From: a virus
Virus record (IMG/VR): IMGVR_UViG_3300045988_107814
Location: 32,001 to 96,000 of that record
DNA length: 64,000 nt
Strand: one strand, 5' to 3'
The first letter of the stretch is position 1. The number at the start of each line of letters is the position of its first letter. This document shows positions 5,433-57,141 of this stretch, one piece after another. Made by a program: the position numbers and the translations under genes. Under the pieces are notes generated by a model. That model did not search any database. It was not told where the DNA came from and saw only the letters and a program-made list of their open reading frames with translations.

Positions 5433-5446
5433 ATTATATTAATGTT
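5433..5446 (-). promoter_or_regulatory. AACA-N6-TAAT candidate phage promoter
   Basis: Minus strand reads AACATTAATATAAT, directly after the terminator and 18 nt before the ATG at 5415. Confidence 0.4.
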
Positions 5447-5449
5447 AAA

Positions 5450-5483
5450 GTCAAAAAATAAAGGCGGATTTTAACCCGCCCTT
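5450..5483 (-). terminator. intrinsic terminator after 5526..6557
   Basis: Minus strand AGGGCGG..CCGCCUU stem followed by TATTTTTTG. Confidence 0.6.
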
Positions 5484-5525
5484 ATTCTCCATATTAGTGC
5501 TCAGATTTCAAATCTTTTTGACAAT

Positions 5526-6557
5526 TTAAATTCCTCTAATATTGTCTAAGAATTTCTTTCTCTTAGCTTCAAATCTCTGTTTTAATTTCTCATCATCAAG
5601 CAGATTATTATCAATTTCTTTGTAGTGATCTTCAAATGCCTGTTGTTGTAATTTCTCATTAGTAAGTGGATTATATAATGGCATGAAGTTGTATTCATAT
5701 GAAAGATTTCTTACCATTACATCTTTTACAGCACTTTTATATACAGATTCGAGATTTTTATAAATTTCTTTCAGAGTATGCTCTCTTTTAGATTTGAGAG
5801 CATCCTTCATGATATAAAAGCAGTTATCAAAAACAGATTTATATGTTTCAATAGAAGGATCTTGATATGTTGATTTAATAAGTTTGGTTACAAATCCACC
5901 AAAACAGAAAGATTCATTATCAATATTATATAAATAATCTGAATTACAACTAAAGCCCTCTGTGAAATAGATATATCTGATTCTGTCAAACTCCTTTCGT
6001 TCAAGGCATCTAGATCCGAAAATAGTTTCAAATACTACCAGACATTTATTATTATTTTTATTATAATTGTCTGTAATATAATCATCGAACAATTTTCTCA
6101 ATACAGTTGAACTAGAGCATACGCCATCATATGAATTTACATATCTAATTTTTATATTTCCGGTACTGTATCTATTAAATTTACAATCATCAATATTAAT
6201 AGATTTAATAAGTCTAATTTTGTAATCATAACTATATAGAACGTTAATATATTCGTCTGAATATAAGAAACTAAGTTTTCTGCCATCTTTAACTGTATCA
6301 TCTCTAAAATCTTCCACACCGTCCTCTCTATAAGGTAAAGTATTATCAATAATTTTACCATTTGTATCGAGGAAGTAGAATGTTTTGTTTCTTTCCATTG
6401 AAAGCTTTTTATAGATGGACTTTAAATCCATATCATCTTTAATTCCATATGCCGACATAACGGCATTCATAATTCCATTAAAGATTCTTCTTGTTCTTTC
6501 GTTTCTCTTTTTCGTGTTCATATCAAACTCCATTCTATGTTTTAATGTCTTTACCAT
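5526..6557 (-). CDS. hypothetical protein
   Basis: 343-aa ORF. The start is uncertain: the ATG at 6521 has the better GGAG spacing. Confidence 0.7.
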   Translation of the reverse strand: MVKTLKHRMEFDMNTKKRNERTRRIFNGIMNAVMSAYGIKDDMDLKSIYKKLSMERNKTFYFLDTNGKIIDNTLPYREDGVEDFRDDTVKDGRKLSFLYSDEYINVLYSYDYKIRLIKSINIDDCKFNRYSTGNIKIRYVNSYDGVCSSSTVLRKLFDDYITDNYNKNNNKCLVVFETIFGSRCLERKEFDRIRYIYFTEGFSCNSDYLYNIDNESFCFGGFVTKLIKSTYQDPSIETYKSVFDNCFYIMKDALKSKREHTLKEIYKNLESVYKSAVKDVMVRNLSYEYNFMPLYNPLTNEKLQQQAFEDHYKEIDNNLLDDEKLKQRFEAKRKKFLDNIRGI

Positions 6558-6589
6558 CTGACATATTGTAGATTTATTTAGTGATATTT

Positions 6590-7186
6590 TCAGGATATTA
6601 CAACTTCCTGTGCAGTGATGTCAATTACATTAGAATCTTTCAATTCAACATGAAGCGTAAGCTCAATAGAATTTTCAGATAATCTTTCTGCTGTAAGCCA
6701 ATAACTTGTATATCCGTTTTTTCCAAAATAACGATCGATTAGATTTTTGATTTTGTTATTTTGATCCAAAAGACTAATTTCATTTGGCTTATATGATCTA
6801 AATTCTTTTGTCATCAGTTTAGTTTTTGCATCAATATCTCCGATGAACGGACGATTTTCAAGAATTGAATTGATCTCTTCTGTTTCTCTTTTAAGTTTTT
6901 CCAAATTCTTTTGATATTGGTAAACTTTAAGAGACTTGATATTATACTTCTCAATACAACCATCAATATTGATATTAACACTATTAGTACAAAACTCAAT
7001 ATGTACTGTCTTATTCACCGTGTTTTCTTTATACACAATGAACATCATTGCTTCGCTTGCAGAGTCAAACATATATGTTATAACCCCGCAGGTCAACATT
7101 ACTTGTTCACTGCCAAAAATATTATTGATCCTTTTCATAGCAGTGATTGCTTCGGTTTCCTTTGTGATTTTAATAACTTCGTTCAT
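6590..7186 (-). CDS. hypothetical protein
   Basis: Trimmed to the ATG at 7186 (MNEVIKI), preceded by GGAGGAAAATCAA. The track start is a TTG inside the SD. Confidence 0.75.
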   Translation of the reverse strand: MNEVIKITKETEAITAMKRINNIFGSEQVMLTCGVITYMFDSASEAMMFIVYKENTVNKTVHIEFCTNSVNINIDGCIEKYNIKSLKVYQYQKNLEKLKRETEEINSILENRPFIGDIDAKTKLMTKEFRSYKPNEISLLDQNNKIKNLIDRYFGKNGYTSYWLTAERLSENSIELTLHVELKDSNVIDITAQEVVIS

Positions 7187-7261
7187 TTGATTTTCCTCCA
7201 AATAATTTTAATATAGTATAGATATCAGATTATCTAATATCTACATACATAATATATAATT

Positions 7262-7304: not shown

Positions 7305-7307
7305 ATT

Positions 7308-7806: not shown

Positions 7807-9495
7807 TTATATCTTTTTCATAAGACCCAGTTGATGACGAGTAAAAAGCATGTTGTCAGGATTAATTTCTTGCTCGTCAATCTTCTTACCACATTTAGGA
7901 CATCTACGTTCAGGATATACATATGTCACATCTCTAATTAATTCACCATCATCATCTAACTTACCACCATCATACTTATCAGTTTCAACAGATAGAGCCA
8001 TCAACTGGTCAGATGTTAGAGACTTAAGGATAGTATCAAATGTCTTAATACGACGCTTATAAGTTAGAGACTTATCTGTAGCTACTGGCTTTGTGTCAAT
8101 AGGAATTAGTTCATTATTAGCATAATCAATCTTATAAATAGCATCGATATAAGATAGAAGTAATAGACGATCTTCATACTTAGCATTGAAATCTTGATTT
8201 ACAAGAGTTGGCTCAATATAAGTATTATATAGAGATGGAACCTTTAGTGCAAATACATAATCGTCAGATGCTTGATATAGAGATACTTCATATTCAGAAT
8301 TTACAGAATCAGTATTTCCTTCATGTAGAATCTTCATATACTCATCCTTAATACTATCATCTCTAAACTTTAGCATAGAATGAATTGGTACTGGTTCCAT
8401 AAATACATTATTACATTCAGTATCAGAACAAGAGAATGTGATAATGTTAGATAAACCGAATGTAGCCTTATATGCTGTAAACATGTAGTCATCAATTACA
8501 GTATTAGGTGTAATCATAGCCCAAGCTTCGAAAGACTTCGGTTTGTTAGCATCTACAATATGATCATAAATAAGCTTTAGCTTATTTTCGATATATTTAT
8601 TATAATTGCCGCTTCTTAGTCTACTAGGATCAATAGACTGAATTTCCATAGGCTTCCAAGCAGACATTCTTACAGCACGCTTCTGAGAGAATAGAACTCC
8701 GTCAGCACACTCAATAGCCTTTGTCTTGATATCATTAATTACCTTTGCAGCATTAATAGGTTTTTTAGAAATCTTGAAAGAACCAAGGTTGATCTTCTTG
8801 TCTACAGGAACAAAGTTTTTATTCACTTCTTCTCTGATAATAGCCTTAACCTTTTCTGTCTTAACCTTCTCGTCTTCCTCTTCCTTTTTATCTTCATCTT
8901 CAGAAGATTCATCTTCATCTAGATACTTTAGATCATCATCTTCGATTCCATCAAATAGATGCTCATCTTCATCATAAACAGACTCATCTTCTACCATTAC
9001 AATATTCTCAGACTTAGTACCAGCTACAGGAGCAGACACTTCAACGGTCTTTTCAATCTTAACAGGCTTCTCTTCTACTACAGGAGCTGGAGATGGTTTA
9101 ACCGTCTGTGTAGTTTCTGTTGGTTCTTCATCAAACTTATGAACTAGTACCGTATTAGAAGTTGTAGAATTAAGAGTTTCGTCAATAGTATCGATATCTG
9201 TATTATCAGAATTAATAGCTTCTTCGATTCTCTGTTCTTCACCCTTCTCATAAGTTTCATTTGTTTCTACTTGAAGTCTACTAATGGTATCATCTATACC
9301 AAGAAACGCCTTATCCAACATTGGGTTTCCAGTACCCTCAACTACATTAGGTGTACTTGGTATAACCACTTCTTTAATATTAGCTTCAGTTGCAGAAGAT
9401 GTATCTAGCTTTGGTTTTACAGGCATTCCAACTGGCGTTGCAGTAGGAACAGCTCCACTAGAAAGATCAGATAGAGTTACATTTTCATTACTCAT
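7807..9495 (-). CDS. hypothetical protein with a disordered acidic N-terminal half and a C-terminal Cys4 zinc-ribbon-like motif
   Basis: 562 aa. Contains EDEDKKEEEDEK low-complexity sequence, then CSDTEC...CPKCGKK near the C-terminus. It is translationally adjacent to the gp25-like gene. Confidence 0.75.
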   Translation of the reverse strand: MSNENVTLSDLSSGAVPTATPVGMPVKPKLDTSSATEANIKEVVIPSTPNVVEGTGNPMLDKAFLGIDDTISRLQVETNETYEKGEEQRIEEAINSDNTDIDTIDETLNSTTSNTVLVHKFDEEPTETTQTVKPSPAPVVEEKPVKIEKTVEVSAPVAGTKSENIVMVEDESVYDEDEHLFDGIEDDDLKYLDEDESSEDEDKKEEEDEKVKTEKVKAIIREEVNKNFVPVDKKINLGSFKISKKPINAAKVINDIKTKAIECADGVLFSQKRAVRMSAWKPMEIQSIDPSRLRSGNYNKYIENKLKLIYDHIVDANKPKSFEAWAMITPNTVIDDYMFTAYKATFGLSNIITFSCSDTECNNVFMEPVPIHSMLKFRDDSIKDEYMKILHEGNTDSVNSEYEVSLYQASDDYVFALKVPSLYNTYIEPTLVNQDFNAKYEDRLLLLSYIDAIYKIDYANNELIPIDTKPVATDKSLTYKRRIKTFDTILKSLTSDQLMALSVETDKYDGGKLDDDGELIRDVTYVYPERRCPKCGKKIDEQEINPDNMLFTRHQLGLMKKI

Positions 9496-9508: not shown

Positions 9509-9928
9509 TTATTTGAAATCAGCTAAAGATGCTGTTTTTTGCAATACTTCACCAGTTTCAGTATTGATAGGTAAGTATGCATTTAATTCTTCTGATGTAA
9601 TATAAATTCTGATAACTTTTTTGTCACCAGTTTCATCATCTCCAAGAACACATCTTACATCTGTTAATGTAAATTGCGGGAGATAAGTCATGATTTGTTC
9701 TTTAATAGTATTAGATAACTTTCCCATATCTACATCCATTGAATATCTAAATCTAGATACTAACCCTACACCCATGTCTGGATGTGTTTGAAAAGTACCA
9801 GGTTCTAATAAAATAAGTCTGATAAGCATAAGTGTTTTATAATCATCACCTTCTGCTACTAAAGGCTTATAGTATTTATCAACAGATAATAGAGGTTCTG
9901 TATTATCTACTTCAATAGACAATGACAT
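9509..9928 (-). CDS. baseplate wedge protein, GPW/gp25-like
   Basis: 139 aa. LILLEPGTFQTHPDMGVGLVSRF...IKEQIMTYLPQF parallels the T4 gp25 block ITTRKGSRPFDPEFGCDL...IESAVRNYEPRI. Comparison made by eye only. Confidence 0.5.
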   Translation of the reverse strand: MSLSIEVDNTEPLLSVDKYYKPLVAEGDDYKTLMLIRLILLEPGTFQTHPDMGVGLVSRFRYSMDVDMGKLSNTIKEQIMTYLPQFTLTDVRCVLGDDETGDKKVIRIYITSEELNAYLPINTETGEVLQKTASLADFK

Positions 9929-9948: not shown

Positions 9949-9962
9949 ATTATAATATTGTT
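9949..9962 (-). promoter_or_regulatory. AACA-N6-TAAT candidate phage promoter
   Basis: Minus strand reads AACAATATTATAAT, 21 nt before the ATG at 9928. Confidence 0.4.
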
Positions 9963-10980: not shown

Positions 10981-11130
10981 TTTAAATGACCTCCTGAAAA
11001 TTAATTTTATTTTGATATGTACTATTTATGTCCATATCATATAAATAATATATGTATAAATTAGTTTTTACAGTATTAAAAACTTAACTATAAATACATC
11101 CATCATAAACACGAATTTAGGAGGAAATAT

Positions 11131-11919: not shown

Positions 11920-11986
11920 GATTGTATATTATACTTGTGTATAAAAAGAAAAGTTTATATAATATTTTTACAGGAGGCATGTACAA

Positions 11987-13618
11987 ATGGATATATTTGA
12001 ATATTGTCATAGTGAAATCTATTGGTGTGAAGTTGATAAATGGATACCATTAATAGGAGAAAATATTTTTACCAATGTGAAGAATGCAATTATTCTTCCT
12101 GTATCGTCATTTTTCGGTATGACGAAATCTAATGTATTAGATACGTTTTTCTTATTACCGAAGAGATGCTATAATTCAGATGAAATAAGAAATCATATCT
12201 GTAAATATCTAAACTATTTCGAAAAATTTTATGATCATGAGCATGAACTTTTGTTCTATATGTATAAGATCAAAGTATCTATTGATATGGGTGTGTATGA
12301 TAATGCTGTTGATAATGGTGTTATTATTGATGGCATAGATAATGAGAATACACCACCTAAAATTAAAGCATTCTTATATGATATCAAAACTTATATCTTG
12401 TCCGAATCAATCTACAATAAAGTATGGAGAATGGTTGAGGATAACTATAACCTTGAATTGAATTATAAGAATAAAGCTAACGAAGCACTTCAATATTGTG
12501 ATCGACATGGTAAGTATTTTATGGAGATTAGTATCTTCCAGAATATGCTAATTCCATTGTTGATGCATTTTATGTACAAAGATGATAAGTTAAAGAATGC
12601 GACTGAAATTATGAACGGACTTATCTTCAATGTATACAACTGGTTATTCGACGTTTATAGTAATGAAGCTATAATGGTTAAACGTGGATTAAGACCAGCA
12701 GATATGTTTCAGAAACTATATGAAACTGCAATCACCACAATGAACGCTCATTATAAAACTAATAGAACATTGTGGGATATGTCTAGTATTCGTGGCTATT
12801 GCCCAAATATTAATGCACATGATGCAATTAATACAGTAATAATGCAGGTAATGCCAAAATACACCTTTGAGGGAAACGTTATTACATACAATATAACTTC
12901 TATCAGAAACAATATCAAATATAATATTTCCGATATAAGCTTTGAGTATGATTTCGTTTCTCTAAGTTCCTCAAAACGAGATGGTGAAGATAACACATCT
13001 CAATTTGATAAATTTGAAGCTCATCTACAAAAGACAGATGAGGGCTTGGCTCTACAGAATGATTTCAGAGCTAGAAAAACAATTGAAGATATTTTACAAG
13101 TTAACGGTGATATTCCTCAGAGTGAAATAGATTTTTATAGAAAAGAACTCATTAAGAATGGTCAACCGTTAATCAATAGATTCCAACAGAATCTTGTTGA
13201 TAATGTATTTTATAAATATTTTGGAGATACTGTTTCTACTAACAGTATTAATGGTGACGATTATATTAAGTTGATGATTATTGCCAAAAAACTATTACTA
13301 AGACAAGGAATGATTCTATTACCATATATAGTCGCTAGCAAGGTAGTAAAAATCTCTACTAGAACTTCTCTTTGTAAGAAAGAACTTATGAAGATGGAGC
13401 AGTCTGAGCACTATAATACACTCATGAAAAAATATAATGGTAATAAAAAGGTCATGAATATATTATTTTCGCTAATCGCAACCACGTTATCTAGTAACTT
13501 CAAGATCATTGATTATGATGAAAAGAATAATGTACCAACAGAACTCAATGGTATTGAAGTGCAAATGGAGAATGATATTATAATTGACGAAATGTTAAGA
13601 TTCGTCATTATGATATAA
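11987..13618 (+). CDS. hypothetical protein
   Basis: 543-aa ORF with AGGAGG upstream. Confidence 0.75.
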   Translation: MDIFEYCHSEIYWCEVDKWIPLIGENIFTNVKNAIILPVSSFFGMTKSNVLDTFFLLPKRCYNSDEIRNHICKYLNYFEKFYDHEHELLFYMYKIKVSIDMGVYDNAVDNGVIIDGIDNENTPPKIKAFLYDIKTYILSESIYNKVWRMVEDNYNLELNYKNKANEALQYCDRHGKYFMEISIFQNMLIPLLMHFMYKDDKLKNATEIMNGLIFNVYNWLFDVYSNEAIMVKRGLRPADMFQKLYETAITTMNAHYKTNRTLWDMSSIRGYCPNINAHDAINTVIMQVMPKYTFEGNVITYNITSIRNNIKYNISDISFEYDFVSLSSSKRDGEDNTSQFDKFEAHLQKTDEGLALQNDFRARKTIEDILQVNGDIPQSEIDFYRKELIKNGQPLINRFQQNLVDNVFYKYFGDTVSTNSINGDDYIKLMIIAKKLLLRQGMILLPYIVASKVVKISTRTSLCKKELMKMEQSEHYNTLMKKYNGNKKVMNILFSLIATTLSSNFKIIDYDEKNNVPTELNGIEVQMENDIIIDEMLRFVIMI

Positions 13619-14618: not shown

Positions 14619-14893
14619 ATAACACAGATGTATATATTCAAGATAAATTCATTAGAACTAGACTTACTAATATAAGAAAGTCTAAAGGTTTAACACAAGA
14701 ACAACTAGCAAATAAAGCTGGTTTATCAGCAAGTACTATAAGTAATATAGAATCTGGTGAGAACTCTTATACATTAAGAAGTCTCATTAGATGTGCTGAA
14801 GCTCTTGGTTATGAAATAAATATAGATAAGAAAGTCGGTGATAATAATGATACCGAAACAGAGAATCAAGGAGTATCTACTTCAAGCCCTTGA
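14615..14893 (+). CDS. XRE-family helix-turn-helix protein
   Basis: GLTQEQLANKAGLSASTISNIESGENSYTLRSLIRCAEALG is a typical HTH_3 pattern. Start is an ATGA overlap with the upstream gene. Confidence 0.75.
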   Translation: MNNTDVYIQDKFIRTRLTNIRKSKGLTQEQLANKAGLSASTISNIESGENSYTLRSLIRCAEALGYEINIDKKVGDNNDTETENQGVSTSSP

Positions 14894-15914: not shown

Positions 15915-15920
15915 TAATTT

Positions 15921-15974: not shown

Positions 15975-15988
15975 AACATTTCAATAAT
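15975..15988 (+). promoter_or_regulatory. AACA-N6-TAAT candidate phage promoter
   Basis: AACATTTCAATAAT, 18 nt before the ATG at 16006. Confidence 0.4.
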
Positions 15989-16005: not shown

Positions 16006-17196
16006 ATGGGTAAGTTTATTAATAAATCATATACTAATACTATTGATTCTCTAACCAGTGGTATGATTCAAAAAGTAAAATCTGCCAATTATGTATTTAA
16101 CAACAAACCTCCTGTTTTATGTGACTGGTATAACATTGATAAAGATGCTACCACATTAGATGAAGGAAGTGGATTAGAATATTCAAGTGTCGGTAAGTCT
16201 AGTCCTATAAGATATAAATGTATTAAAGATGCTGTATTCTATTCTCAAGGTATTCAAATTGAAATTAATCTTGAATATGATGAGGATGGTTTGTCCACAG
16301 CACCTCCATCTATAAGTGGTATAGTTTTACCTAATACTTGGATTCCATATCCAGGTGATCATTTTATAATAAAACAGGCTGGCAAAGATTACTTATATAG
16401 AGTAAATAATGTAAGTTATGATACTATAGATAATGATAATAACGTATATAGTTTTGAGGCTGCTGTAGATCAGACTGGTAAAAATAATATAGAAAACCAA
16501 GTTACTGAATACTATAGAATGATAATCAATAATGTGGGCACTTCTTTTAATTCTATTATCAAAGAATCTATATATGATTGTATAGATACATTAGATGGAA
16601 TATTAGTTCAGTTAAAGAATAACTATATTGCTTTATTCTATAATGATGCTGTTCAAACATTTACTTATAATGGTATGTACGGTAATCTTTATGATCCTTA
16701 TATGATTGAGTTTATGACGAGAAATGAAATCCTAAATGGTTCTGATGAGTATATCTATTTACATCACGAAGTACCAGTACCAAGAACATTTTCTATAGAT
16801 TATAATAGTACTTTATTTAGAGCATTAGAAACTAGGTCTATTGAAAATTTCTCTTCTAAAATCTGTACCGCTGATGTTATAGATAATCAATACTCTTTAT
16901 TCAACACAGTAGTTGAGAATTACTTTATGATCAAATATAACGATAACGGAATATACAAGTTTAGTCCAATTAATGCTGAACTAATTGCTAAGGTAAAATC
17001 TAACCAAGAGTTTGATCAATATAGTCCAAATTCATATATGAATATAATTATAAAATATATGAACAAGTCTAAAATAGATTCTTCTATAATTCCATTCTTA
17101 GAAGCAATCGATTTCAAATCTACTGTAGATTTATTCTATTGTATTCCTATGATTATTTTTTGCTTAGAGAATAGTATCAAAAATTTGATGAGTTAA
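16006..17196 (+). CDS. hypothetical protein
   Basis: 396-aa ORF with AAGGAGG upstream. Confidence 0.75.
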   Translation: MGKFINKSYTNTIDSLTSGMIQKVKSANYVFNNKPPVLCDWYNIDKDATTLDEGSGLEYSSVGKSSPIRYKCIKDAVFYSQGIQIEINLEYDEDGLSTAPPSISGIVLPNTWIPYPGDHFIIKQAGKDYLYRVNNVSYDTIDNDNNVYSFEAAVDQTGKNNIENQVTEYYRMIINNVGTSFNSIIKESIYDCIDTLDGILVQLKNNYIALFYNDAVQTFTYNGMYGNLYDPYMIEFMTRNEILNGSDEYIYLHHEVPVPRTFSIDYNSTLFRALETRSIENFSSKICTADVIDNQYSLFNTVVENYFMIKYNDNGIYKFSPINAELIAKVKSNQEFDQYSPNSYMNIIIKYMNKSKIDSSIIPFLEAIDFKSTVDLFYCIPMIIFCLENSIKNLMS

Positions 17197-17232
17197 CATA
17201 CCAATAAAACCTAGTAAAGGAGGATTAATTAT

Positions 17233-18757: not shown

Positions 18758-20560
18758 TTAGAATATTGGATTTACAAATTTAACAGAATCATCAGGTTGA
18801 ACAGTTAATTCATATAAACAGAGTATATTTTCTTTAGATACATCTCTTGTAGAATAACCGTTCATACCAAGTATTTGAATCTTTGCATCGGCTTGTTTCT
18901 CACATTCTTTATTTGCCTCTATTGTATACACAGGTTTTACAATTGCTGTATCACCATCATAATCCATTCCCATCGCTCCAATTAATCCATTACAAATAGA
19001 CAATGTATCTTCAAACACTGGAGATGTATTTGAATTGATATCCCTGTCAGTTATAATAGGGTACCATTTATATAGCTTATTGTTATCTTCAAAATCAGAT
19101 TGTATTACCATAGGTTGTGTTTTAACAGTAGATTTGATTCTTACTTTTGTAGGATACTGGTTTAAGAACGAGTCAATTGGGAAACGAGTAATTAGAACCA
19201 TCTTATCGGATGTAACATCACAAGCAGCCATATAGAACAAGTCACACCAAGTAAGAGGTCTATTGATCTTTAATTCTGAAGAATATTCTTTTTTCTTTTC
19301 ATCAAAATCTTTAGAATTATTTAACTTATATCCCATAAAGTACATATAAAAGCTTAACTCATTGATTTTAATATTTTTACCAGTAACTGTATCTTTTAAT
19401 TCACCATTCTTAGCACGTCTAGCAAATTCTTCTTTATCTACTGGTAATTCAATAGGAATAAATCTGTTTGAATAACCATGGATGAAACGTTCAATCTGAG
19501 CATCCAATTCTACATCAGAAAAAGCTATCTGATAATCTACAAGAGGAACCATTACTACTTCTTTATCATTAATAGAAATAGGATATTCTAGTTTACCTGC
19601 AAATCTATTCTCAAAGAATCGTCTTAACCAGAACATAATAAATGGTTTAAAACAACACAATGCCGCAGCCAATGGTAATGCAGCATGATTCATATCTACC
19701 ATTAAATCATCAATATCTTCACCAGATACATCTGGTGCAGACATAACTAATCTTGCAGAATAGTCTACTGTCTTATACATTACACCACGTTTAATAAGAC
19801 CCATTTTACCAGGTAAGTTTGCCGGTGTTTCTTGTCCATTAATCGTTGTACCATTACCAAACCAATCAAATATCTGTAATAAAATATTCTGAACTCTAGC
19901 TTTTGTTACATCACTTAAAGTTAGGCCAAATTCAGCAGTTTCTTTTAAAGACTTAGTAGCCATAATCAGACTACTATATAACTTATTAATTTCACCAACA
20001 CCGATACCATTATCTTTAGTATCTACGTCTCTATAATATGGTGGAATTACTATATACTTTGTTACCCATAATTGATTCTTGCACTTTTCAATAAAATCAA
20101 TTCTTCTGTTTCTAGAAGATGATTCATTCTTTTTAAACTTCAATTTACTAAAGTTTCTTTTAAGCCAATCAATACCAGTATTACCATCATCAGATTTAAC
20201 TAATTCACCACCATCATTAATAATAAAATATTCTGTACCGTTAACTACACTTTCAATTTTATTATTTAATTTACATAGTGTCTTATATACTAATGGATGA
20301 AAAAAAGAACTACCAAGATCTATATAAGCATATATACCAGATCTCTCAGCTTTAGTAATACCAAAAATTTCATTAGAAAGCAATCCATCTTCTGTAGGTG
20401 TAGGACCATTAAAAAATACAGGATTAGTAATTTCTTTCAATTGATTTACTCTAATAAATTTATCTACATCTAATAAAGAAGTTTTTAGGTGTTCTGTACT
20501 AGCTTCTGAAAAATAATCAGTTTCATTTTTAACAATATTTACAGCTTCATCTATAAGCAT
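18758..20560 (-). CDS. phage multisubunit RNA polymerase, beta-prime N-terminal-half homolog
   Basis: [23 protein letters not shown] matches bacterial [40 protein letters not shown] matches [25 protein letters not shown] matches the NADFDGD catalytic loop. The protein ends shortly after that loop. Confidence 0.8.
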   Translation of the reverse strand: [600 protein letters not shown]

Positions 20561-20582: not shown

Positions 20583-20596
20583 AATTATTAAATTGT
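20583..20596 (-). promoter_or_regulatory. AACA-N6-TAAT candidate phage promoter
   Basis: Minus strand reads AACAATTTAATAAT, 22 nt before the ATG at 20560. Confidence 0.4.
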
Positions 20597-20650
20597 TGAA
20601 GCTGTAAAAAGAGTCGTATGATTCTTTTTATATACATCTAAGTCTACTTT

Positions 20651-20664
20651 AACATTTAAATAAA
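20651..20664 (+). promoter_or_regulatory. AACA-N6-TAAA candidate phage promoter (variant)
   Basis: AACATTTAAATAAA upstream of 20688..21125. Confidence 0.3.
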
Positions 20665-20687
20665 ATACATTAATGGAGGAATTAATA

Positions 20688-26553: not shown

Positions 26554-26567
26554 AACATTTCAATAAT
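26554..26567 (+). promoter_or_regulatory. AACA-N6-TAAT candidate phage promoter
   Basis: AACATTTCAATAAT, identical to the 15975 site, 26 nt before the ATG at 26593. Confidence 0.4.
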
Positions 26568-27315: not shown

Positions 27316-27438
27316 TGTAGCTAAGTTTTAACATAATGATAAAAGGTCATGTAGCCCAGCTATAACCTTATAATCAAATAATATATAAGATTAACACACA
27401 CATTTTGAAAATTTATTCTATAAAAAGGAGGATAAAAC

Positions 27439-34195: not shown

Positions 34196-34209
34196 ATTAA
34201 TAGATTGTT
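34196..34209 (-). promoter_or_regulatory. AACA-N6-TAAT candidate phage promoter
   Basis: Minus strand reads AACAATCTATTAAT, 22 nt before the portal ATG at 34174. Confidence 0.4.
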
Positions 34210-38192: not shown

Positions 38193-38430
38193 ATATTTTA
38201 CCTCCGTCTTTCTTAACTAACGCATTGCGTAACTTAATGACTATTATATATTAGTTTGTCAATGTATAAAAATCGAAAATAACTCCTCACGGTACCCGAC
38301 AACCGTGAGGAATCAAAATAAATTAACAGAGGAAAACAAACTCATAAGAGGAAATCATGTCCCAACCAGACCTTAAGGTAATATTTCAACCTTATTTAAA
38401 TGTTCAAAAATATTAGCGATTTATATGAAA

Positions 38431-38444
38431 AACATCTCTATAAT
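38431..38444 (+). promoter_or_regulatory. AACA-N6-TAAT candidate phage promoter
   Basis: AACATCTCTATAAT, 26 nt before the ATG at 38470. Confidence 0.4.
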
Positions 38445-41207: not shown

Positions 41208-41243
41208 GAACTTTATTATAAAACTACTAAGGAGGTCGATATA

Positions 41244-44884: not shown

Positions 44885-45025
44885 ATTTATTAATGGAATA
44901 TCATAACAATATAATAAAAATAGTGGAAAGGATATTATGTTGCTTACACTATTAATTTTAATAACAGTAATATTATCATCTCTAAACATTTATAAATTTT
45001 AATTCCAAAAAGGAGGATACTAATT

Positions 45026-48966: not shown

Positions 48967-49059
48967 TTTATTTCCTCCTAATGACAAAATATATTTGAGG
49001 ATGACAATCGAGTCATCCTCTTCTTACACCTTAATATTATATAATACAATTATTGTTTA

Positions 49060-49800: not shown

Positions 49801-51351
49801 CTACCACCATGCTTTATTACCATTATCATCTAATCTTTCAAATGGCATACCACCATATTTTATTAGTCTGTTGTGCATTACGTTAAATGCAGTATTTTTG
49901 AGTTGCTTGTTTGTAAATCTTATTTCCTTTGTATCGAGTGCATATTTATCATACATTGGAAGTGCGTTTTTATAATAATTATAAATAGGCTTTACAGAGA
50001 TATCTACTAGATCTATATAGAATGAATTATATTTTCTTGTCCTACCAAATCTCTGTTGATTCTGCGGTAACGATTTTGTAGGTTCAGCCATATTTATACA
50101 TACCATAAGATCATCAATATCCAAACAAGCCCCAGCAGATTTAGACGTTGTTAATATGAGTGTATTATTCTTTGCAGATGCTTTGTCTGGATTAATAGAC
50201 GTATAGATTCCAATATCATTAGCATACTCAGAATAGTTATATCTTAACCAATTATAAAAGAATACTATTGAATTATTGGTAGAAAAGAATAATAACTTCT
50301 TTCCTGGAATCTTACTAATCATATCCATAACAATTCTTGAAATATAGTCAAAGTTTTGTTTCAAGATAACAATATCATTATATGTCATCTTATTAAAACC
50401 ATGATTGCTAAAACAAGGTAACATCTCTTGTTCAGTCACACCACTCTTATAAAGCAATGCAATATAATGAGTATGAGGATCTGATTCAGGATCAAATAAC
50501 GATAGAGTTGGAACATTTCTAAAGTAATTCTGATATACTCTATCTTGATTAGAATCTCCTCTAGATGGTGTTGCTGATAGATATAATGTCTTATATACTG
50601 GAGAAGCATAATCTATATTGCATATATTATCAAAATTAAGATGTGCTTCATCTATTATCTTAAGACCGATACCAAGTTTATTAAACAATACATCTATAGA
50701 TTCCCAACCATTATTCTTTGCATATGAAAGAATAGTATCATGTGTTATAGTGTATACTTTATACTTATCTGGATTGAAATTACTTTTAATAATTTTATTC
50801 ATCATAATAGATCCTGATATAAACATCAACTCAGATGGAATAAGATTAGTATGCTGAAGATATGCATCTTTCCATTGATTAAGCCAATCTACAGAATTAG
50901 TAATAATAACTGTTTTTACATTCAACAATGCAGAGTAAACTATACCTAAATATGTTTTACCTGCACCTGTATTCAATGCCAAAAACAATTGATCATATTT
51001 TTTAGTATAACTATATTCGCCTTTACCAGAAAGAAACTTAAGTGCTAACTCTTGTTTCTCATCTTTAGGTGGAAACTTGATTAATATCTGATTTGTATTG
51101 AGCCTCGGTTTATTATAGGTGTTTTCATAAAATGCATAACAACCTACAATACGTTCTATAAATGGTATATCAACACCTCTTGGAATTGTATATGTTTTAT
51201 TTACTCTATCATAAACAACTCCAATAGATTTGAATGAGAATGTTGTCTTATCATAAATATCAAATAGTTTCTCTAACTCAGGTATATCACCAATATTATA
51301 ATTATTAATCACTATCTTATTATGATAAACAACTAACTTTCTGTTGTCCAT
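49801..51351 (-). CDS. SF2 DEAD/DEAH-box helicase
   Basis: Motif I LNTGAGKTY, motif II IIDEAH, motif III LSATPSR, motif VI QQRFGRTRK. Confidence 0.8.
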   Translation of the reverse strand: MDNRKLVVYHNKIVINNYNIGDIPELEKLFDIYDKTTFSFKSIGVVYDRVNKTYTIPRGVDIPFIERIVGCYAFYENTYNKPRLNTNQILIKFPPKDEKQELALKFLSGKGEYSYTKKYDQLFLALNTGAGKTYLGIVYSALLNVKTVIITNSVDWLNQWKDAYLQHTNLIPSELMFISGSIMMNKIIKSNFNPDKYKVYTITHDTILSYAKNNGWESIDVLFNKLGIGLKIIDEAHLNFDNICNIDYASPVYKTLYLSATPSRGDSNQDRVYQNYFRNVPTLSLFDPESDPHTHYIALLYKSGVTEQEMLPCFSNHGFNKMTYNDIVILKQNFDYISRIVMDMISKIPGKKLLFFSTNNSIVFFYNWLRYNYSEYANDIGIYTSINPDKASAKNNTLILTTSKSAGACLDIDDLMVCINMAEPTKSLPQNQQRFGRTRKYNSFYIDLVDISVKPIYNYYKNALPMYDKYALDTKEIRFTNKQLKNTAFNVMHNRLIKYGGMPFERLDDNGNKAWW

Positions 51352-51414: not shown

Positions 51415-53637
51415 TTAACCCATGAAAGTAAACAGTTCATTAGGCTTTCCTTCATTTTCCACAACCGGATTTTCTGCAAGGAATTTCTGAGGCTGAACCA
51501 TATAAAGAAGATCGTATCCAGACGGTTCACTCTTCTTATAGCTTAACGGGTTATAAAGCATTCTTGCAATATCCTGAGACTGAAGAGCTACAGAAATACT
51601 CGGATGAGTTTGAATAGCTTTCTTCAATGTCAGAATTGTATAATTCTGCTGATTAGGAACTGACCAGTCTGGAACGTCAATAATATTTTCAGCAGAACGA
51701 ATCTGATTCATAATGATAATCTCAAGATGAACACTCATAATTCCATCAAGACCAATGTTGTTAAGCTTATCACTCAACGCTTCAAGGAATGTCTCTGCTG
51801 TATAGCTATCTGTATTTGACTTTCTATCGATAACTCTAATAACAGATTCAAGTCTCTCAGACATATCATCATTATGAATACTTTCAAGATCAAACAAAGG
51901 ATAATCTTCACCGATAAGATTGTTTACTGGAATAGTAATATCTTCATCAACATCATTAATATTCTTGAGTTTAAGATACTCAATAAGCCATTCGCTTAAT
52001 TGGAAATTATCCAAGTTAGTAGACTTGATAGGATATTCCATACCAGTAGATTCATTTCTGAGATAAAATACATTTACATATTTAATAATCTCATCAAATG
52101 TTGCATCAATATCGTCATCATCAGATTCATCACTTTCGATAGCAGCAAACACTTCTTCTTGAATGTCACCATCTTTAATAATGAATTTCCATTTCTTAGC
52201 ATCTTCAAATTCTGGATTAATATAGATAGTACCATTATCAACTACAATAAGCTGTTCAAGTTGTTCCTTAGTAAGCATACTAGTATCAAATGTCAACTCA
52301 TCAATCTTTGCTTCGAGAAGATGTTTTGCAGACAACATCATCTGAGTCAACGGTTCTGTCAGATTTGTTACACTATAAATTCCAATATTTACAGCAGGAA
52401 TAATATTGTATAACTCACCCATACACTTTCTACAAACACCTCTACCCTCTGCGGCAGATCTACATTTGATTGGGCTTCTTAAATAGATTTCCTTTCCAAT
52501 AAGATTAGAATTAACTTTAGTGATATTATAAACATCACTAGTTCTATATTCCATTCCCATTGGGTCCAGTCTGTAATATCTATCGGCAATCTTCTTTAAT
52601 GCTACCTCATCAGTAACTTTGTACTTCAAGAAATTACGAGTACCACAATCATATCCAGGATCAATCTTATTTGTATATGGGATAGTATACTTCTTCGTTC
52701 TAGAACAATTAAGAATCATAATTCTACTAAACTGACCAGAACGAGCAGTATTTTTCTTTGACAGAATCTGTGCAATTCTTGCAATCAAAGACTCAAGAAT
52801 ATGAAATGCAACATTAGTAGCACCACCACTAATATAATTAGTGTTTACTACATAAGGGAAAATACCACCCTCGCCATTAGGCTTGACACCAATATTGATA
52901 TACATTTCACGAGCCTGTTTAGGTTTAATACCTTCTTTTGCTCTAAATGCATCAGATAAGCAATGATCTCTACCAATATATTTCTTAGCATTTACAATAT
53001 AATCGATAAGACGATTCATATCTTTTAATGCTTCTGCATTCATCTGCTCAGGTGGGAACTGAGAATAATAGTTGGTCTTATGTCTGTCCATAATTTCTTT
53101 AAAACCAGGGCAGTTATTATACATAAGAATAAAGTCTTCGTTGTTGATAGAATTGTTAAAGAACCACGCAAACTTATCAACAAACTTAAGATTCCTCAGA
53201 GTATCATAGATAATTCTATTAAGATTATGAATAATCATAATATCACTATCATTACCACATCTTTCTCTTGTAGGAATAATAGCAAATCTATCAATATACT
53301 TCTTGATATAGCCGTTGGTAATACCGTCCTTATTAAAGAATACATGATACGGTTTAATTGTTTGACCAGTTTTAATAATAAACTGCCAAACAATGATGTT
53401 GATAAGAGAATAAGACAACGGCAATCTTACTCTCATATTATTATCGAAAACGAATTCAATTTTTGTATTCTGAATTGCCTGAATTTCAATATAATCCAAG
53501 AATACATTTTTCAAATCATTAACATAATCATCAATGTTAGATTCATTGATATCACTTGTTCTAATGGTAACAGAATTACCATTAATCACTGGTGTAAAAA
53601 CACCATAATCATAAATTTGGGCAACGTTAGTGTTCAT
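51415..53637 (-). CDS. phage multisubunit RNA polymerase, beta-prime C-terminal-half homolog
   Basis: [24 protein letters not shown] matches bacterial [38 protein letters not shown] matches AAQSIGEPGTQLTMRTFH (trigger loop region). Confidence 0.75.
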   Translation of the reverse strand: [740 protein letters not shown]

Positions 53638-53717
53638 TATAAATTCCTCCTAAAACTATTGTTATGTAATAGTTTTTGACAAAGTCATTTCCTATTACAT
53701 GTTAATAATATACTAAT

Positions 53718-53757: not shown

Positions 53758-53778
53758 CCAAATCACATTATAATATAA

Positions 53779-54237
53779 TTAGTGACGAGTCTTGCTCATT
53801 TCCTTTGGTTGCAACTTAGGAGTATTGATATGCTTTTGGCCTTGACCAGAAACATACATACGCTGACCCTGGCGAGCTACAGTCTTAGCTTTGTTAGCAT
53901 ACTTCTTCTTAATAGCAGCTAAAAGCTTACGTTCCTGAATACGATTCTTTACAAGCTTCTTCCAAAGATTATCATTATTATCCTTGGCCAACTGTAAAGC
54001 AGCCATGCCTGTACGACGAGTCAAATCATCATTCTTATTTAAACGAACAATTGTCTTACGACTAATTTTCTTAGCTTCCTGAAGTACATCTGCATTTTCA
54101 AGAAGTTCACGCTTTTCTTCATCAGAATCAGAATAATGATCATCATAGAAGAAAGCTTCCTGAAGTTCATCCATATTTAAATACATCTGAACTTCTCTTG
54201 TGTCTTGAGCTAACTGCTCATTAGTATAAAGTCCCAT
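53779..54237 (-). CDS. basic hypothetical protein
   Basis: Trimmed to the ATG at 54237 (MGLYTNEQ), preceded by AAGGAGG. Confidence 0.7.
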   Translation of the reverse strand: MGLYTNEQLAQDTREVQMYLNMDELQEAFFYDDHYSDSDEEKRELLENADVLQEAKKISRKTIVRLNKNDDLTRRTGMAALQLAKDNNDNLWKKLVKNRIQERKLLAAIKKKYANKAKTVARQGQRMYVSGQGQKHINTPKLQPKEMSKTRH

Positions 54238-54309
54238 AGGATTAATCCTCCTTAATAAAATAAAATTTAATTGCAATTAAAAATATTTCGCATACTAATA
54301 CCAGTCTTT

Positions 54310-54323
54310 TTTATATAATTGTT
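54310..54323 (-). promoter_or_regulatory. AACA-N6-TAAA candidate phage promoter (variant)
   Basis: Minus strand reads AACAATTATATAAA. It sits back-to-back with the plus-strand site at 54343. Confidence 0.3.
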
Positions 54324-54342: not shown

Positions 54343-54356
54343 AACAATTTGATAAT
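54343..54356 (+). promoter_or_regulatory. AACA-N6-TAAT candidate phage promoter
   Basis: AACAATTTGATAAT, 53 nt before the ATG at 54409. Confidence 0.4.
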
Positions 54357-54408: not shown

Positions 54409-56508
54409 ATGGACATTACTCAAATTGTTAAAAGTAAAACAACAGATCTTTATAAAAAAGATATGTTAGATGCACTTAAGTTATCTTTTCCAGGTATGAC
54501 AGAAACTGATTTAATGGAAGCTATTGATTATTCTATTACAAAAAGAGGTAGCGATAGTAAAGCATATCTAGATAATAACTATAAGAAAATAAGAGAAAAC
54601 AGAACTCTATTTGAAATTACTGATTATATTATACAGAGAGAACCAATCATTACAGTTTCAGGTGTAATGTTTAGAAAACATGGTTATTGTCCTAATCCTT
54701 TTGTAATGCTTATTCAGGAATTCTTGGAGCAAAGAGGTATTTATAAAAAGACAATGTTTAAATATCCTAAAGGTTCTGAGGAATTTGAAAAGTATAATAT
54801 TCTTCAGTTATCAGAAAAAGTATCTGGTAATGCAATGTATGGTGCTTCTGGTAATCATACAAGTATCTTTTATAATCTTTATGTTGCACAGAGTATTACA
54901 ATGCAAGGTAGAAGTTGTATTGCATCAGCTATTATGTTATTCGAAGCAACAATGGCTAATAATGTAAAGTTACTTAGTCTGAATGATGCGGTGACTTTTA
55001 TTACAAATATTAGACGTGAGCCTGTATTAAAGTATCCAGATGAATTGATTATTGATAAAGATAATTATGTAACTGTAGAAGAATGTTTCTTTAAGATTCT
55101 TTATAGTTCTGGATTCTATTGGATTCCTACAGAAAAAGAAATGACTCTTATTTGGGATATTCTTAATCAGTGTAATCAGCATGAATTGAATAAGATTTTC
55201 TATAAGAATAATCTATTTTGGTTTGTTGATAATAGCCTTGTTATGAACAAGATTATTTCTATTCTTTCTACTCTTGATGAGCCATTTATTGATCCTAATA
55301 GTCCTCCTGAATCTATTAAAGGTATGATGGATGAATTATATGATATGATCTATGAATGGGTTTATTATGATAAACAATATATGGATAGAATTGATAGAAC
55401 AGAAAATATGTACAGATGTGTATCTATGCTTACAGATACAGATAGCTGTTTTATTTCTTTTGATGGATGGTATAGATATATTCTTGATAAGACATTTAAT
55501 ATTCCTATGAAGATTAAAGAGCTTGAAATTGAAGAAAAAACAGGTGAAGTAAAGGAAGCATTTGATATAGGCTATGACTATGACTTTTATAAAGATGAAA
55601 TTATTGAAAGTCAGAATATTATTAGACCTGATGTAATTATTCCTCAGGTTGGTTTTCGTTGTAGTATCATCAATATTCTTGCAAGTATTATGGGAAGACT
55701 TGCTATTGATTATATGTGTAAGTATTCTGATAATTCTAATTCTACTATTTGTCATGATGGTTCTCGACGTAAAAGTTTCTTTATTCTTAAGAATGAATTC
55801 CAACTTAAACGTGCTTTGATTACAGATGGGAAAAAGAATTATTGTGCATATCAAGAACGTCAAGAATCTAATATTATTCCAAAAGAAAAAGCTCTTGCAA
55901 TTACAGGCATGCCGATCAAAAAAGTAGGTGTTCCAGAATCTACAAAAGTTAGACTTCAAAAAATTCTTCTTGAACAAATTCTAGATAATCCTGGCGAAAT
56001 TTCTCAAGTAGAAATTGTAAAACAGTTAGCTATATTCGAAAAACAAATTATTCAAGCTATCGAAAATGGTAGTAAAGAATATTTTAAACCAGAAAGAATC
56101 AAAGCTAAAGATGCTTATGATAATCCTATGAGAGAATCTGGTGTTAAGGCCGCAATAGCATTTAACTTCCTCAAGGATGACGATATGGAAGCTATTGATC
56201 TTGATGAAAGAAATAGTATTCTAAATATTAAAGTAAATATTGATCTTAAAAATATTGAGAATATGAAAGATAGATATCCAGATGTTTATAAACGTGCTAT
56301 TGAACTAATGTCAACAAGAAAAGAATTTGAAAAAGGAATTACTGCTATCGCTATTCTAGACAATATGCAAGTACCTGAATGGATTAAGGAATATATTGAT
56401 TATACTACTATTGTAAATGATAATCTTAGACCATTTCCTTGCGAAGCCTTAGGTATTGATAGAATGGACAACAAGAATATTAATTATACTAATATTTTGA
56501 AGTTTTAG
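54409..56508 (+). CDS. family B DNA polymerase, C-terminal part (motifs B and C, thumb)
   Basis: Motif B QLSEKVSGNAMYGASG (Kx3NSxYG), motif C MLTDTDSCFI (DTDS), and KKxY as GKKNYCAY. No exonuclease motifs and no motif A. Confidence 0.85.
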   Translation: MDITQIVKSKTTDLYKKDMLDALKLSFPGMTETDLMEAIDYSITKRGSDSKAYLDNNYKKIRENRTLFEITDYIIQREPIITVSGVMFRKHGYCPNPFVMLIQEFLEQRGIYKKTMFKYPKGSEEFEKYNILQLSEKVSGNAMYGASGNHTSIFYNLYVAQSITMQGRSCIASAIMLFEATMANNVKLLSLNDAVTFITNIRREPVLKYPDELIIDKDNYVTVEECFFKILYSSGFYWIPTEKEMTLIWDILNQCNQHELNKIFYKNNLFWFVDNSLVMNKIISILSTLDEPFIDPNSPPESIKGMMDELYDMIYEWVYYDKQYMDRIDRTENMYRCVSMLTDTDSCFISFDGWYRYILDKTFNIPMKIKELEIEEKTGEVKEAFDIGYDYDFYKDEIIESQNIIRPDVIIPQVGFRCSIINILASIMGRLAIDYMCKYSDNSNSTICHDGSRRKSFFILKNEFQLKRALITDGKKNYCAYQERQESNIIPKEKALAITGMPIKKVGVPESTKVRLQKILLEQILDNPGEISQVEIVKQLAIFEKQIIQAIENGSKEYFKPERIKAKDAYDNPMRESGVKAAIAFNFLKDDDMEAIDLDERNSILNIKVNIDLKNIENMKDRYPDVYKRAIELMSTRKEFEKGITAIAILDNMQVPEWIKEYIDYTTIVNDNLRPFPCEALGIDRMDNKNINYTNILKF

Positions 56509-56514
56509 TAACAA

Positions 56515-56552
56515 AAAATAAACAGGACGTAAAGTCCTGTTTATTTCTTTTT
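56515..56552. terminator. bidirectional terminator between convergent genes
   Basis: 13-bp stem AAATAAACAGGAC/GTCCTGTTTATTT followed by CTTTTTGC. Confidence 0.7.
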
Positions 56553-56577
56553 GCTTTGTGAAGATATGTTTATAGTA

Positions 56578-56934
56578 TTACTTTTCTTGTGCTATTTCCC
56601 TTGCTATTTCTTTAATTTGAATTTTCTTTACTAAATAAATAACAGAATCGTTGTATTCGAAGAACGAATCAAATAATTTTTCATCGGCTTCAATCTGACT
56701 TTTAAATGCACTATAGCCAGAATTAATAATTGAGTGTTCACGAATAAATAAGTTTTCTAACATATTAATTTTAGATTCGTTCCTTCGTTTAATAGCCTTT
56801 AAAAATGATAAAGAGTAAGTAAGGTCAAGCATATTCTTGCATTCGTAAGGAATATTTCCAACCTTAAACGACTTTTTGATTGCACGATGAAACTTATTTG
56901 CTGCCGAAATAGCTACCTTAATATCGTTGGTCAT
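56578..56934 (-). CDS. hypothetical protein (cassette B)
   Basis: 118-aa ORF. The start ATG at 56934 overlaps the TGA of a 12-codon upstream ORF. Confidence 0.7.
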   Translation of the reverse strand: MTNDIKVAISAANKFHRAIKKSFKVGNIPYECKNMLDLTYSLSFLKAIKRRNESKINMLENLFIREHSIINSGYSAFKSQIEADEKLFDSFFEYNDSVIYLVKKIQIKEIAREIAQEK

Positions 56935-57085
56935 GATAATGCCTTTCTCCCTTTAATGTCTGGGATCATAAGTTTTATACAAACTTATGATTACTTGCCT
57001 TTTGACAACTGGAGTAATTTGCAAGTCTCCAGTTATTGATATAGATAGAATGTATTCTCCTATTCACTATAATAATATATAAAGC
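56935..57085 (-). promoter_or_regulatory. conserved class-II promoter/leader, copy B
   Basis: Minus strand reads TATATATTATTATAGTGAATAGGAGA ... GTATAAAACTTATGATCCCAGACATTAAAGGGAG, matching copy A at 34255..34405. It contains the stems CTGGAG/CTCCAG, ACTTGC/GCAAGT and ATCATAAGTT/AACTTATGAT. Confidence 0.55.
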
Positions 57086-57127
57086 AATAAATAAAATCTT
57101 ACACTTCTGTATATTTCTTGTATCTTG

Positions 57128-57141
57128 AACATATCTATAAT
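57128..57141 (+). promoter_or_regulatory. AACA-N6-TAAT candidate phage promoter
   Basis: AACATATCTATAAT, 29 nt before the ATG at 57170. Confidence 0.4.

Follow-up and report, generated by a model that had tools for sequence, protein, structure and literature searches.

The 64-kb stretch of phage DNA analysed here (IMG/VR record IMGVR_UViG_3300045988_107814, positions 32,001 to 96,000; hereafter the window, with coordinates counted from its first nucleotide) carries a short, oriented motif, AACA-N6-TAAT, upstream of many of its genes. A preliminary description of the sequence had proposed this motif as a promoter of the phage RNA polymerase, and its placement, its de novo recovery, a matrix built from AR9 promoters, its conservation in relatives, its replication in held-out sequence and the presence of polymerase homologues all support the proposal. 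The sites are very probably late promoters of the type known from the Bacillus jumbo phage AR9, and would be read by the phage's own non-virion RNA polymerase (nvRNAP). The AR9 consensus given in the preliminary description is indeed the published one: Lavysh et al. 2017 report AACA-(6N)-TA/G (PMC5312081), the last base being the start site and nvRNAP the reading enzyme (PMC5312081; PMC7598289). Written out for AR9 and PBS1, it is 5'-A(-11)ACA-(6N)-T-A/G(+1)-3', recognised by the nvRNAP holoenzyme with gp226 (PMC5312081; PMC5449584; PMC9209446). What is new is an extended consensus around the start; the promoter class itself is known, and no new mechanism is involved.

Placement and form of the motif

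The window has a G+C content of 30% and is 94% coding, with intergenic spacers making up 6% of it; its 36 gene-oriented upstream spacers total 4074 nucleotides (nt), or 3.3% of the two-strand search space. An exact search of the window returns 10 matches to AACA-N6-TAAT against a chance value of 10.36 +/- 3.04, and the signal therefore lies in placement and not in abundance. Nine of the ten are intergenic and all nine aim at the adjacent downstream gene, with 17-52 nt between the end of the motif and the start codon; the tenth is intragenic (38609, plus strand), so that the split is 9 sense, 0 antisense-only and 1 coding. The nine sites of the preliminary description all exist, one of them shifted by a single base (20584, not 20583), and the distances of 18-53 nt that it gave agree with ours once the gene at 5433 takes ATG and not TTG as its start. 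In dinucleotide-preserving shuffles of the 36 spacers the mean count is 0.48 and the maximum 5, and none of 2000 shuffles reaches the nine observed.

Because the pattern had originally been picked after looking at the sequence, we enumerated every 4mer-N(0-12)-4mer combination across the 36 spacers. The commonest dyad is AACA-N5-ATAA (13/36 spacers), with the Shine-Dalgarno sequence AAAGGAGG behind it (11/36), whereas over 300 shuffles the top dyad is found in 6.7 spacers on average and in 10 at most. The pattern was also replicated in a held-out test on a further 10 kb of this phage, beyond the window, which holds four sense intergenic sites, 20-35 nt upstream of start codons, and one coding match.

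Thirteen aligned sites read AACA, W, T, T, N, W, A (12/13), T (13/13), A (13/13), A (13/13) and then T or A, and the earlier observation that positions 5 and 6 are mostly W-T stands, position 5 being A or T and position 6 mostly T. The AACA block also accepts one substitution: AACT-N5-ATAA is observed 6 times against 0.49 expected, with 6 or more in 0/1000 shuffles, while the block rarely or never shows any other single substitution. Five of these six sites lie at the same distance from ribosome-binding sites (upstream of NrdD, gene 11131, the N-part of family-B DNA polymerase (PolB), gene 41244 and the nvRNAP beta-prime C gene), and the sixth, at 14703, falls within a helix-turn-helix open reading frame (ORF) of 92 amino acids (aa) that was absent from the initial gene model. 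AACT is an accepted variant of the late motif, and the refined consensus is AAC[A/T]-N5-A-T-A-A-[T/A], present at about 22 sites. Counted over both strands, AAC[AT]-N5-ATAA has 26 matches, of which 21 are sense-upstream (14703 included), 1 is antisense-only and 4 are coding; the upstream spacers hold 20, compared with 1.05 in shuffles. The AACT sites cluster upstream of DNA-metabolism genes (NrdD, PolB N-part, nvRNAP beta-prime C), and the AACA sites upstream of virion genes. The sites are the following:

5433..5446, minus strand: AACA-N6-TAAT, AACATTAATATAAT, upstream of virion structural gene 4636-5414 (phrog_18911); terminator hairpin directly upstream
9949..9962, minus strand: AACA-N6-TAAT, AACAATATTATAAT, upstream of genes 9509-9928 and 7807-9495; terminator at 10016-9986
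15975..15988, plus strand: AACA-N6-TAAT, AACATTTCAATAAT, upstream of virion structural gene 16006-17196 (phrog_3013); terminator at 15920-15944
20584..20597, minus strand: AACA-N6-TAAT, AACAATTTAATAAT, upstream of the virion RNA polymerase (vRNAP) beta-prime N-like gene 18758-20560; top match of the AR9 matrix
26554..26567, plus strand: AACA-N6-TAAT, AACATTTCAATAAT, upstream of virion structural gene 26593-27315 (phrog_2926); terminator hairpin upstream
34196..34209, minus strand: AACA-N6-TAAT, AACAATCTATTAAT, upstream of the 769-aa virion structural gene 31865-34174; motif kept in 9/9 relatives
38431..38444, plus strand: AACA-N6-TAAT, AACATCTCTATAAT, upstream of gene 38470-39420; motif kept in 6/6 relatives
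54343..54356, plus strand: AACA-N6-TAAT, AACAATTTGATAAT, upstream of the PolB C-part 54409-56508
57128..57141, plus strand: AACA-N6-TAAT, AACATATCTATAAT, upstream of a giant ORF running from 57170 to beyond 64000
20651..20664, plus strand: variant AACATTTAAATAAA, upstream of gene 20673-21125, divergent from 20584; relatives have AACATAACTATAAA there
54310..54323, minus strand: variant AACAATTATATAAA, upstream of virion structural gene 53779-54276; motif kept in 12/12 relatives
3709..3722, minus strand: variant AACAAGTTAATAAG, upstream of gene 3233-3682; absent from the preliminary description
17195..17208, plus strand: variant AACATACCAATAAA, overlapping the stop of 16006-17196, upstream of 17233-17727; kept in 8/8 relatives
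27330..27343, plus strand: AACATAATGATAAA, 98 nt upstream of the 1079-aa gene 27439-30678; conserved in 9/9 relatives
44905..44918, plus strand: AACAATATAATAAA, 110 nt upstream of the major capsid gene 45026-47104, followed by a 5'-proximal stem-loop
925..938, minus strand: AACT variant AACTTATAAATAAA, upstream of the NrdD N-part gene 201-899
11081..11094, plus strand: AACT variant AACTTAACTATAAA, upstream of gene 11131-11919
38243..38256, minus strand: AACT variant AACTAATATATAAT, upstream of the PolB N-part 36150-38192; in relatives AACAAATATATAAA stands there, preceded by a conserved terminator
41209..41222, plus strand: AACT variant AACTTTATTATAAA, upstream of the 870-aa gene 41244-43856; AACT kept in 14/14 relatives, down to 34% identity
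53661..53674, minus strand: AACT variant AACTATTACATAAC, upstream of the nvRNAP beta-prime C gene, which also has early-type motifs
49859..49872, minus strand: intragenic AACAGACTAATAAA, at the 3' end of the helicase gene, 90 nt upstream of gene 49060-49770
38335..38348, plus strand: AACAAACTCATAAG, immediately upstream of a conserved 19-aa micro-ORF, 38357-38416

The list bears out most of what had been described before, including the TAAA variants at 20651 (plus strand) and 54310-54323 (minus strand), the identity of two 14-mers (15975 and 26554, both AACATTTCAATAAT), and the nature of the downstream genes, which are mainly virion proteins together with the PolB C-part and the virion-RNAP beta-prime N-part. 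Two looser candidates, at 27393 and 44985, do not fit in motif or spacing; before the same genes it is 27330 and 44905 that fit and that relatives retain. The description had also missed a dozen or so sites, among them the AACT variants and the major capsid promoter. The motif at 49859 is present in 8/9 relatives and is therefore probably an internal late promoter. On the opposite strand of the micro-ORF, the position 38391-38404 (minus strand) ranks second with the AR9 matrix; it is not counted as a promoter because, inside this conserved ORF, its conservation may reflect coding. The micro-ORF itself (38357-38416, plus strand; 19 aa, MSQPDLKVIFQPYLNVQKY) has its own Shine-Dalgarno sequence and a C-terminal QPYLNV.KY that is conserved in relatives.

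By homology with AR9, transcription is predicted to start at the A of motif position 12, give or take one base, which would place AACA at -11 to -8. With the start at position 12, predicted leaders are 20-31 nt long at most sites and 98-110 nt at two. The Shine-Dalgarno sequence begins only 6-7 nt past position 12 at 5433 and 15975, and 1 base past the motif in some orthologues. As had been noted earlier for several sites, terminator hairpins lie directly upstream; we found seven such places, where a terminator-like hairpin with a T-run precedes 5446 (minus), 9962 (minus), 15975 (plus), 26554 (plus), 20651 (plus)/20597 (minus), 38256 (minus) and 938 (minus).

Likeness to AR9 and conservation in relatives

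We built a matrix spanning -11 to +1 from the 84 consensus-class mapped late promoters in the first part of Table S3 of the AR9 study (PMC5312081), and scanned both strands of the window with it. The matrix ends at +1 and so omits the last two bases of the motif. Its six best matches in the window are all intergenic, and 12 of its top 20, counted from the match table, are sense-upstream, in spacers that are 3.3% of the search space. All core sites fit the AR9 consensus of AACA, six bases, T and A/G.

The likeness to AR9 extends well beyond the consensus: (i) The AACA block is the same, T-A follows at the same 6-nt spacing, and a -35 element is missing; AR9 nvRNAP requires none and recognises AACA through its complement in the template strand. 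(ii) The first 12 bases of some sites are shared with mapped AR9 promoters, AACATTTCAATA being that of g232, found at our site 15975, and AACAATTTAATA that of g096 and of a tRNA gene. (iii) AACT is tolerated in both phages, as AR9 has mapped non-consensus late promoters of this kind before g057, g202 and g246. (iv) Measured AR9 leaders are mostly 17-60 nt long, compared with the 20-31 nt predicted here. (v) The motif stands upstream of virion genes. (vi) Homologues of gp226 and of the beta-prime C half are present, in the same gp226-primase neighbourhood and with an early promoter before gp226.

There are also differences: (i) The proteins are only about 19-31% identical. (ii) Position -2 is A in 12/13 sites here, whereas AR9 has T in 48 and A in 35 of 84. 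(iii) Position +2 is A in 13/13 sites here, compared with 6 of the 25 AR9 start sites checked, and +3 is mostly T here. The region around the start thus holds more information in the window than in AR9, which is probably why the motif could be recovered de novo, unlike in AR9 relatives: a review describes the late promoters of such phages as not predictable bioinformatically (PMC7598289), and MEME failed to find late promoters in Staphylococcus phage MarsHill.

Outside AR9, the predicted fold of the gp226-like protein matches chain B of 8QUE (Foldseek E 4.9e-7), a structure of the nvRNAP of phiKZ, whose gp68 has been described as the homologue of gp226 and whose late promoters also lack a -35. 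In contrast, the phiKZ late consensus, T(-3)ATG(+1), is without the AACA block, and the window phage follows the AR9 pattern.

The motif is conserved in relatives. Upstream of orthologues of motif-bearing genes it occurs within 140 nt in 210/318 distinct upstream regions (66%), compared with 33/274 (12%) for other, control genes; some of these control matches are what brought the 49859 site to light. Its position before orthologous genes is constant while the flanks diverge. The clearest single case is the major capsid gene, where AACA-N6-TAAA lies about 60-120 nt upstream in 30/34 distinct relatives (36-83% aa identity), the sites displayed in the alignment reaching down to 42% protein identity. 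In five close relatives, dyad enumeration again ranks AACA-N5-ATAA third or higher, as common as the Shine-Dalgarno sequence or slightly less so. AACA and AACT are exchanged at orthologous positions before the PolB N-part and the vRNAP beta-prime gene. Two IMG/VR contigs, L042 and L045 (55-58% capsid identity), have AACT-N5-ATAA as their dominant dyad, in 10/28 spacers, and AACA is rare in them; this clade, which uses AACT for most genes, structural-size ones included, shows a clade-level change at predicted promoter position -8.

The leader of the capsid gene, about 100 nt long (window 44916-44955 and orthologues L019-L044), carries a stem-loop that begins at +2 to +5 in 19/20 distinct relatives. 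The stems are built from different sequences, and the structure therefore looks conserved; its position fits an RNA 5' end at the predicted start. The leader of gene 27439 also begins with a hairpin and holds a conserved ACACACA stretch.

Polymerases and alternative readings

The window encodes parts of both polymerases of an AR9-like phage and carries a second, early-type motif:

11987..13618, plus strand: homologue of AR9 gp226, the sigma-like promoter-specificity subunit of nvRNAP; 543 aa, recognised by profile, fold and synteny
51415..53637, minus strand: homologue of the C half of nvRNAP beta-prime (AR9 gp154); phmmer match to 7S00_D (E 1.4e-21), tblastn match to AR9 128396-129121, phrog_3015
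18758..20560, minus strand: virion-RNAP beta-prime N-like gene; phrog_2986, best tblastn matches annotated as viral/virion beta-prime
7242-7256 (minus), 11038-11052 (minus), 11925-11939 (plus), 39425-39439 (plus): early-type motif TATATTAT-N6-G/A
49027-49041 (minus), 53698-53712 (minus), 53763-53777 (minus), 57065-57079 (minus): early-type motif TATATTAT-N6-G/A

The 543-aa protein gave no match in a phmmer search of the PDB, and its relation to gp226 is seen only by profile and fold. A family profile, built from 32 of 546 metagenomic homologues, matches 7S01_A with an E value of 2.9e-26 over residues 9-461, nearly the full length, and the AlphaFold model (mean pLDDT 82.5) has 7S01_A (E 1.5e-14) and 7UM0_A, both AR9 gp226, as its top two Foldseek matches. 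Gene order agrees: gene 11131 is followed by the gp226-like gene and, two genes on, by the primase, and in AR9 and BpSp g227, g226 and the primase are adjacent. The gp226-like protein is the presumed reader of the late motif. The virion-RNAP beta-prime N-like protein has no match to the AR9 nvRNAP chains; its product is packaged in the virion, and it is therefore expected to be a late gene.

The early-type motif, TATATTAT-N6-G, occurs sense-upstream 7 times against 0.8 in shuffles. It matches the early (virion RNAP) promoters of AR9-like phages, AAATATATATTAT-(6N)-G, being nearly identical to the AR9 consensus, and is distinct from the late motif; its TATATTAT core is also found in the early promoters of phage MarsHill. 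It lies directly before the gp226-like gene, where the AR9 record annotates an early promoter at the corresponding place. Other copies precede the nvRNAP beta-prime C gene and a number of small genes without annotation. The late motif, by annotation, precedes five PHROG virion structural proteins, the capsid protein and the vRNAP beta-prime N-part. An AR9-style cascade of two polymerases would fit this arrangement: the injected virion polymerase would read the early motifs before the gp226-like and beta-prime C genes, the resulting nvRNAP with its gp226-like subunit would read the late motifs, and these would drive the virion genes, including that of the virion-polymerase subunit. The start site, the polymerase used, the late timing and the reading of the template strand are what we infer by analogy with AR9.

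Several observations weigh against assigning the sites to AR9-type late promoters: (i) Both the start site and the polymerase are deduced from homologous proteins that share about 20-30% identity. (ii) In its 3' half, which often reads TATAAT, the motif looks like a bacterial -10 hexamer. (iii) Within the window we find only 2/5 nvRNAP subunits, the other three core subunits not being there. (iv) The most distant loci, L012 and L013 (48% identity in the vRNAP subunit), are without a clear motif, in 18 spacers only. (v) The conservation is partly shared ancestry and not independent evidence. (vi) The PolB, NrdD and nvRNAP genes carry the motif, and so "late" may mean middle plus late, or continuous expression. 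(vii) AR9 nvRNAP needs deoxyuridine in its promoter; the residue aligned with gp226 V206 is Thr261 here, in a column that is variable across the family.

Since the last six bases are TATAAT at four of the nine core sites, and near matches such as AATAAT, GATAAT and ATTAAT at the others, host-type promoters have to be considered: the sites could be -10-only promoters for the host RNA polymerase, with its primary or a phage sigma factor, in which the TATAAT-like half would be the -10 and AACA an accessory. Late promoters with only a -10 exist in other phages, such as those of T4 gp55, and the AT-rich, TATAAT-like stretch without a -35 is shared with the T4 late type. The fixed-spacing AAC block and the geometry relative to the Shine-Dalgarno sequence do not fit either the sigma-70 or the T4 gp55 type. 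A -35-like element is missing, as the preliminary description had said: the best TTGACA match at 16-18 nt averages 2.2/6, compared with 2.5/6 for background intergenic hexamers. Sigma-70-type sites (-35 TTGACA and -10 TATAAT, 16-18 nt apart) are not enriched in the window (124 against 140 in shuffles), and of the 60 listed none coincides with a motif site. What is invariant is AAC at a fixed spacing plus T-A-A, not the whole hexamer, and the AR9 matrix, ending at +1, finds the sites without their last two bases. A start 6-8 nt past the hexamer would fall in or beyond the Shine-Dalgarno sequence at 5433, 15975 and their orthologues; with the ribosome-binding site so near position 12, it would therefore be removed from the transcript. 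The capsid-leader stem-loop at +2 to +5 in 19/20 relatives speaks against such a start as well. In addition, the phage has two polymerases of its own and a gp226 homologue, and no sigma-factor family was found in PHROGs and Pfam scans of 44 of the 54 window proteins in the gene model. Taken together, these points, though indirect, make host-type promoters improbable.

Nor is the motif likely to act in RNA, as a processing site or leader element of polycistronic transcripts. It is strand-specific and lies in leaders near ribosome-binding sites, and AU-rich sequences are typical endoribonuclease targets. However, many sites immediately follow hairpins that resemble intrinsic terminators, so that transcription has to start anew there, and in the divergent spacers 20584/20651 and 54310/54343 there is no upstream transcript in the same direction. 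The distance to the start codon varies from about 20 to 110 nt, yet the internal spacing of the motif is fixed. Several sites have the same first 12 bases as mapped AR9 late promoters, and promoters of this AR9 class are transcribed in vitro by purified nvRNAP (PMC7598289). We regard an action in RNA as highly improbable.

Equally, the probability is very small that the motif serves another phage enzyme or form of enzyme, such as the virion RNAP or nvRNAP with a different factor, AACA and AACT then possibly marking temporal classes. The division of AACT and AACA between DNA-metabolism and virion genes would suit such classes, as would the gene-specific retention of AACT before 41244 in 14/14 relatives. 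But the virion polymerase is already accounted for by the separate early motif of AR9 type, AACA and AACT replace each other at the orthologous PolB N-part and vRNAP beta-prime positions, one clade has AACT at most genes, structural-size ones included, and AACT promoters are ordinary late promoters in AR9. Finally, a chance pattern of AT-rich intergenic DNA has a practically negligible probability: the window-wide count does equal expectation in a genome of 30% G+C, but in the spacers the number observed is not attained by any composition-matched shuffle, and the motif survives the look-elsewhere correction over all dyads, has an orientation bias of 21 to 1, was replicated in held-out sequence and is retained in relatives.

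AR9-type late promoters, as the preferred reading, raise the question of the DNA base that is recognised. AR9 nvRNAP requires deoxyuridine at -11 and -10; gp226 V206 rejects thymine at -10, and the V206G mutant accepts it. In our alignment, W208 of the 2.1bis helix corresponds to the invariant W263, and V206 to T261 (codon 12767-12769). Among 32 sequences the V206 column holds V in 10, G in 6, T in 5, I in 5, D in 3 and other residues in the rest, while W263 and R269 are invariant. The residue is T, I or V, always beta-branched, in close relatives, and G, D, Q or S in clades further away; those with Gly resemble the V206G mutant that was engineered and tolerates thymine. No thymidylate synthase, dCMP deaminase, dUTPase or Ugi-like gene turned up when 44 window proteins were compared with Pfam and PHROG, nor is there one in the 10-kb left flank. 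We also compared the V206-equivalent residue with the use of AACA or AACT at 80 loci with a gp226 homologue; these loci hold mostly early genes, with 0-7 late-type sites each, so that the comparison has no power to reveal a correlation between residue and promoter. The family would have kept template-strand promoter recognition, which appears to evolve, as suggested by the switch of the -8 base between A and T, from gene to gene and from clade to clade, and the changes at the V206-equivalent residue. That AR9-type template-strand promoters work on ordinary thymine DNA in part of the family, this phage perhaps among them, is a tentative idea that we consider unlikely; if true, the template-strand mechanism would be uncoupled from uracil genomes.

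The phage and its relatives

The source of the window is an uncultivated jumbo phage of about 215 kb and a distant relative of AR9. No near-identity DNA match was found among 50,697 cultured-phage records; its proteins are about 25-34% identical to those of the jumbo phages AR9/PBS1/BpSp, Listeria LPJP1 and Staphylococcus S6/MarsHill. ENA contigs of about 192-219 kb hold identical genes, and one contig that carries genes of this phage is labelled as an HMP sample. Many IMG/VR contigs, 200-340 kb long, encode relatives at 40-90% protein identity. The gp226-like protein has 546 homologues in a metagenome protein collection and at least 206 matching stretches in IMG/VR, from which 80 loci were kept, on contigs of up to 342 kb, many of them of 200-340 kb. 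As far as can be told from these homologues, the gp226-like family is a large undescribed group of AR9-like phage relatives. Other genes of the window are the following:

36150-38192 (minus) and 54409-56508 (plus): family-B DNA polymerase, split in two (PHROG)
14838-15914, plus strand: DNA primase
49801-51351, minus strand: helicase
45026-47104, plus strand: major capsid protein
4636-5424 (minus), 16006-17196 (plus), 26593-27315 (plus), 31865-34174 (minus), 53779-54276 (minus): virion structural proteins

The two halves of PolB are separate genes, 16 kb apart on opposite strands, each with its own late-type motif. NrdD is also split, into a 232-aa N-part (201-899) and a 548-aa C-part, with 364 nt of structured-looking non-coding DNA between them (window 1-200, continued in locus L061 at 10700-11063). 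Introns are common in AR9-like phages, and the NrdD insert may be one; Rfam and tRNA scans of the window and flank, the insert and the long conserved leaders included, gave no match. A glycine-rich ORF of 12 aa, MGDGFGGGIGSY, at 18652-18690 (minus strand) has a strong ribosome-binding site and lies in the convergent spacer after gene 18143-18580; it is flanked by hairpins, with an early-like TATATAAT-N6-G upstream.

In the literature that we found, all mapped late promoters of jumbo phages with a polymerase of their own come from cultured ones, such as AR9 and phiKZ. Here the AR9-type late promoter, the early promoter and gp226 are all conserved at about 20-30% protein identity, and the late motif is sharp enough for transcription units to be annotated directly in metagenomic genomes. 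A promoter map is thus at hand for an uncultivated phage family that is represented in human-associated samples. The natural variants of the promoter (AACA and AACT) and of gp226 (V, T, I and G) are material for dissecting template-strand promoter recognition, and offer a concrete test of whether this mechanism requires uracil DNA.

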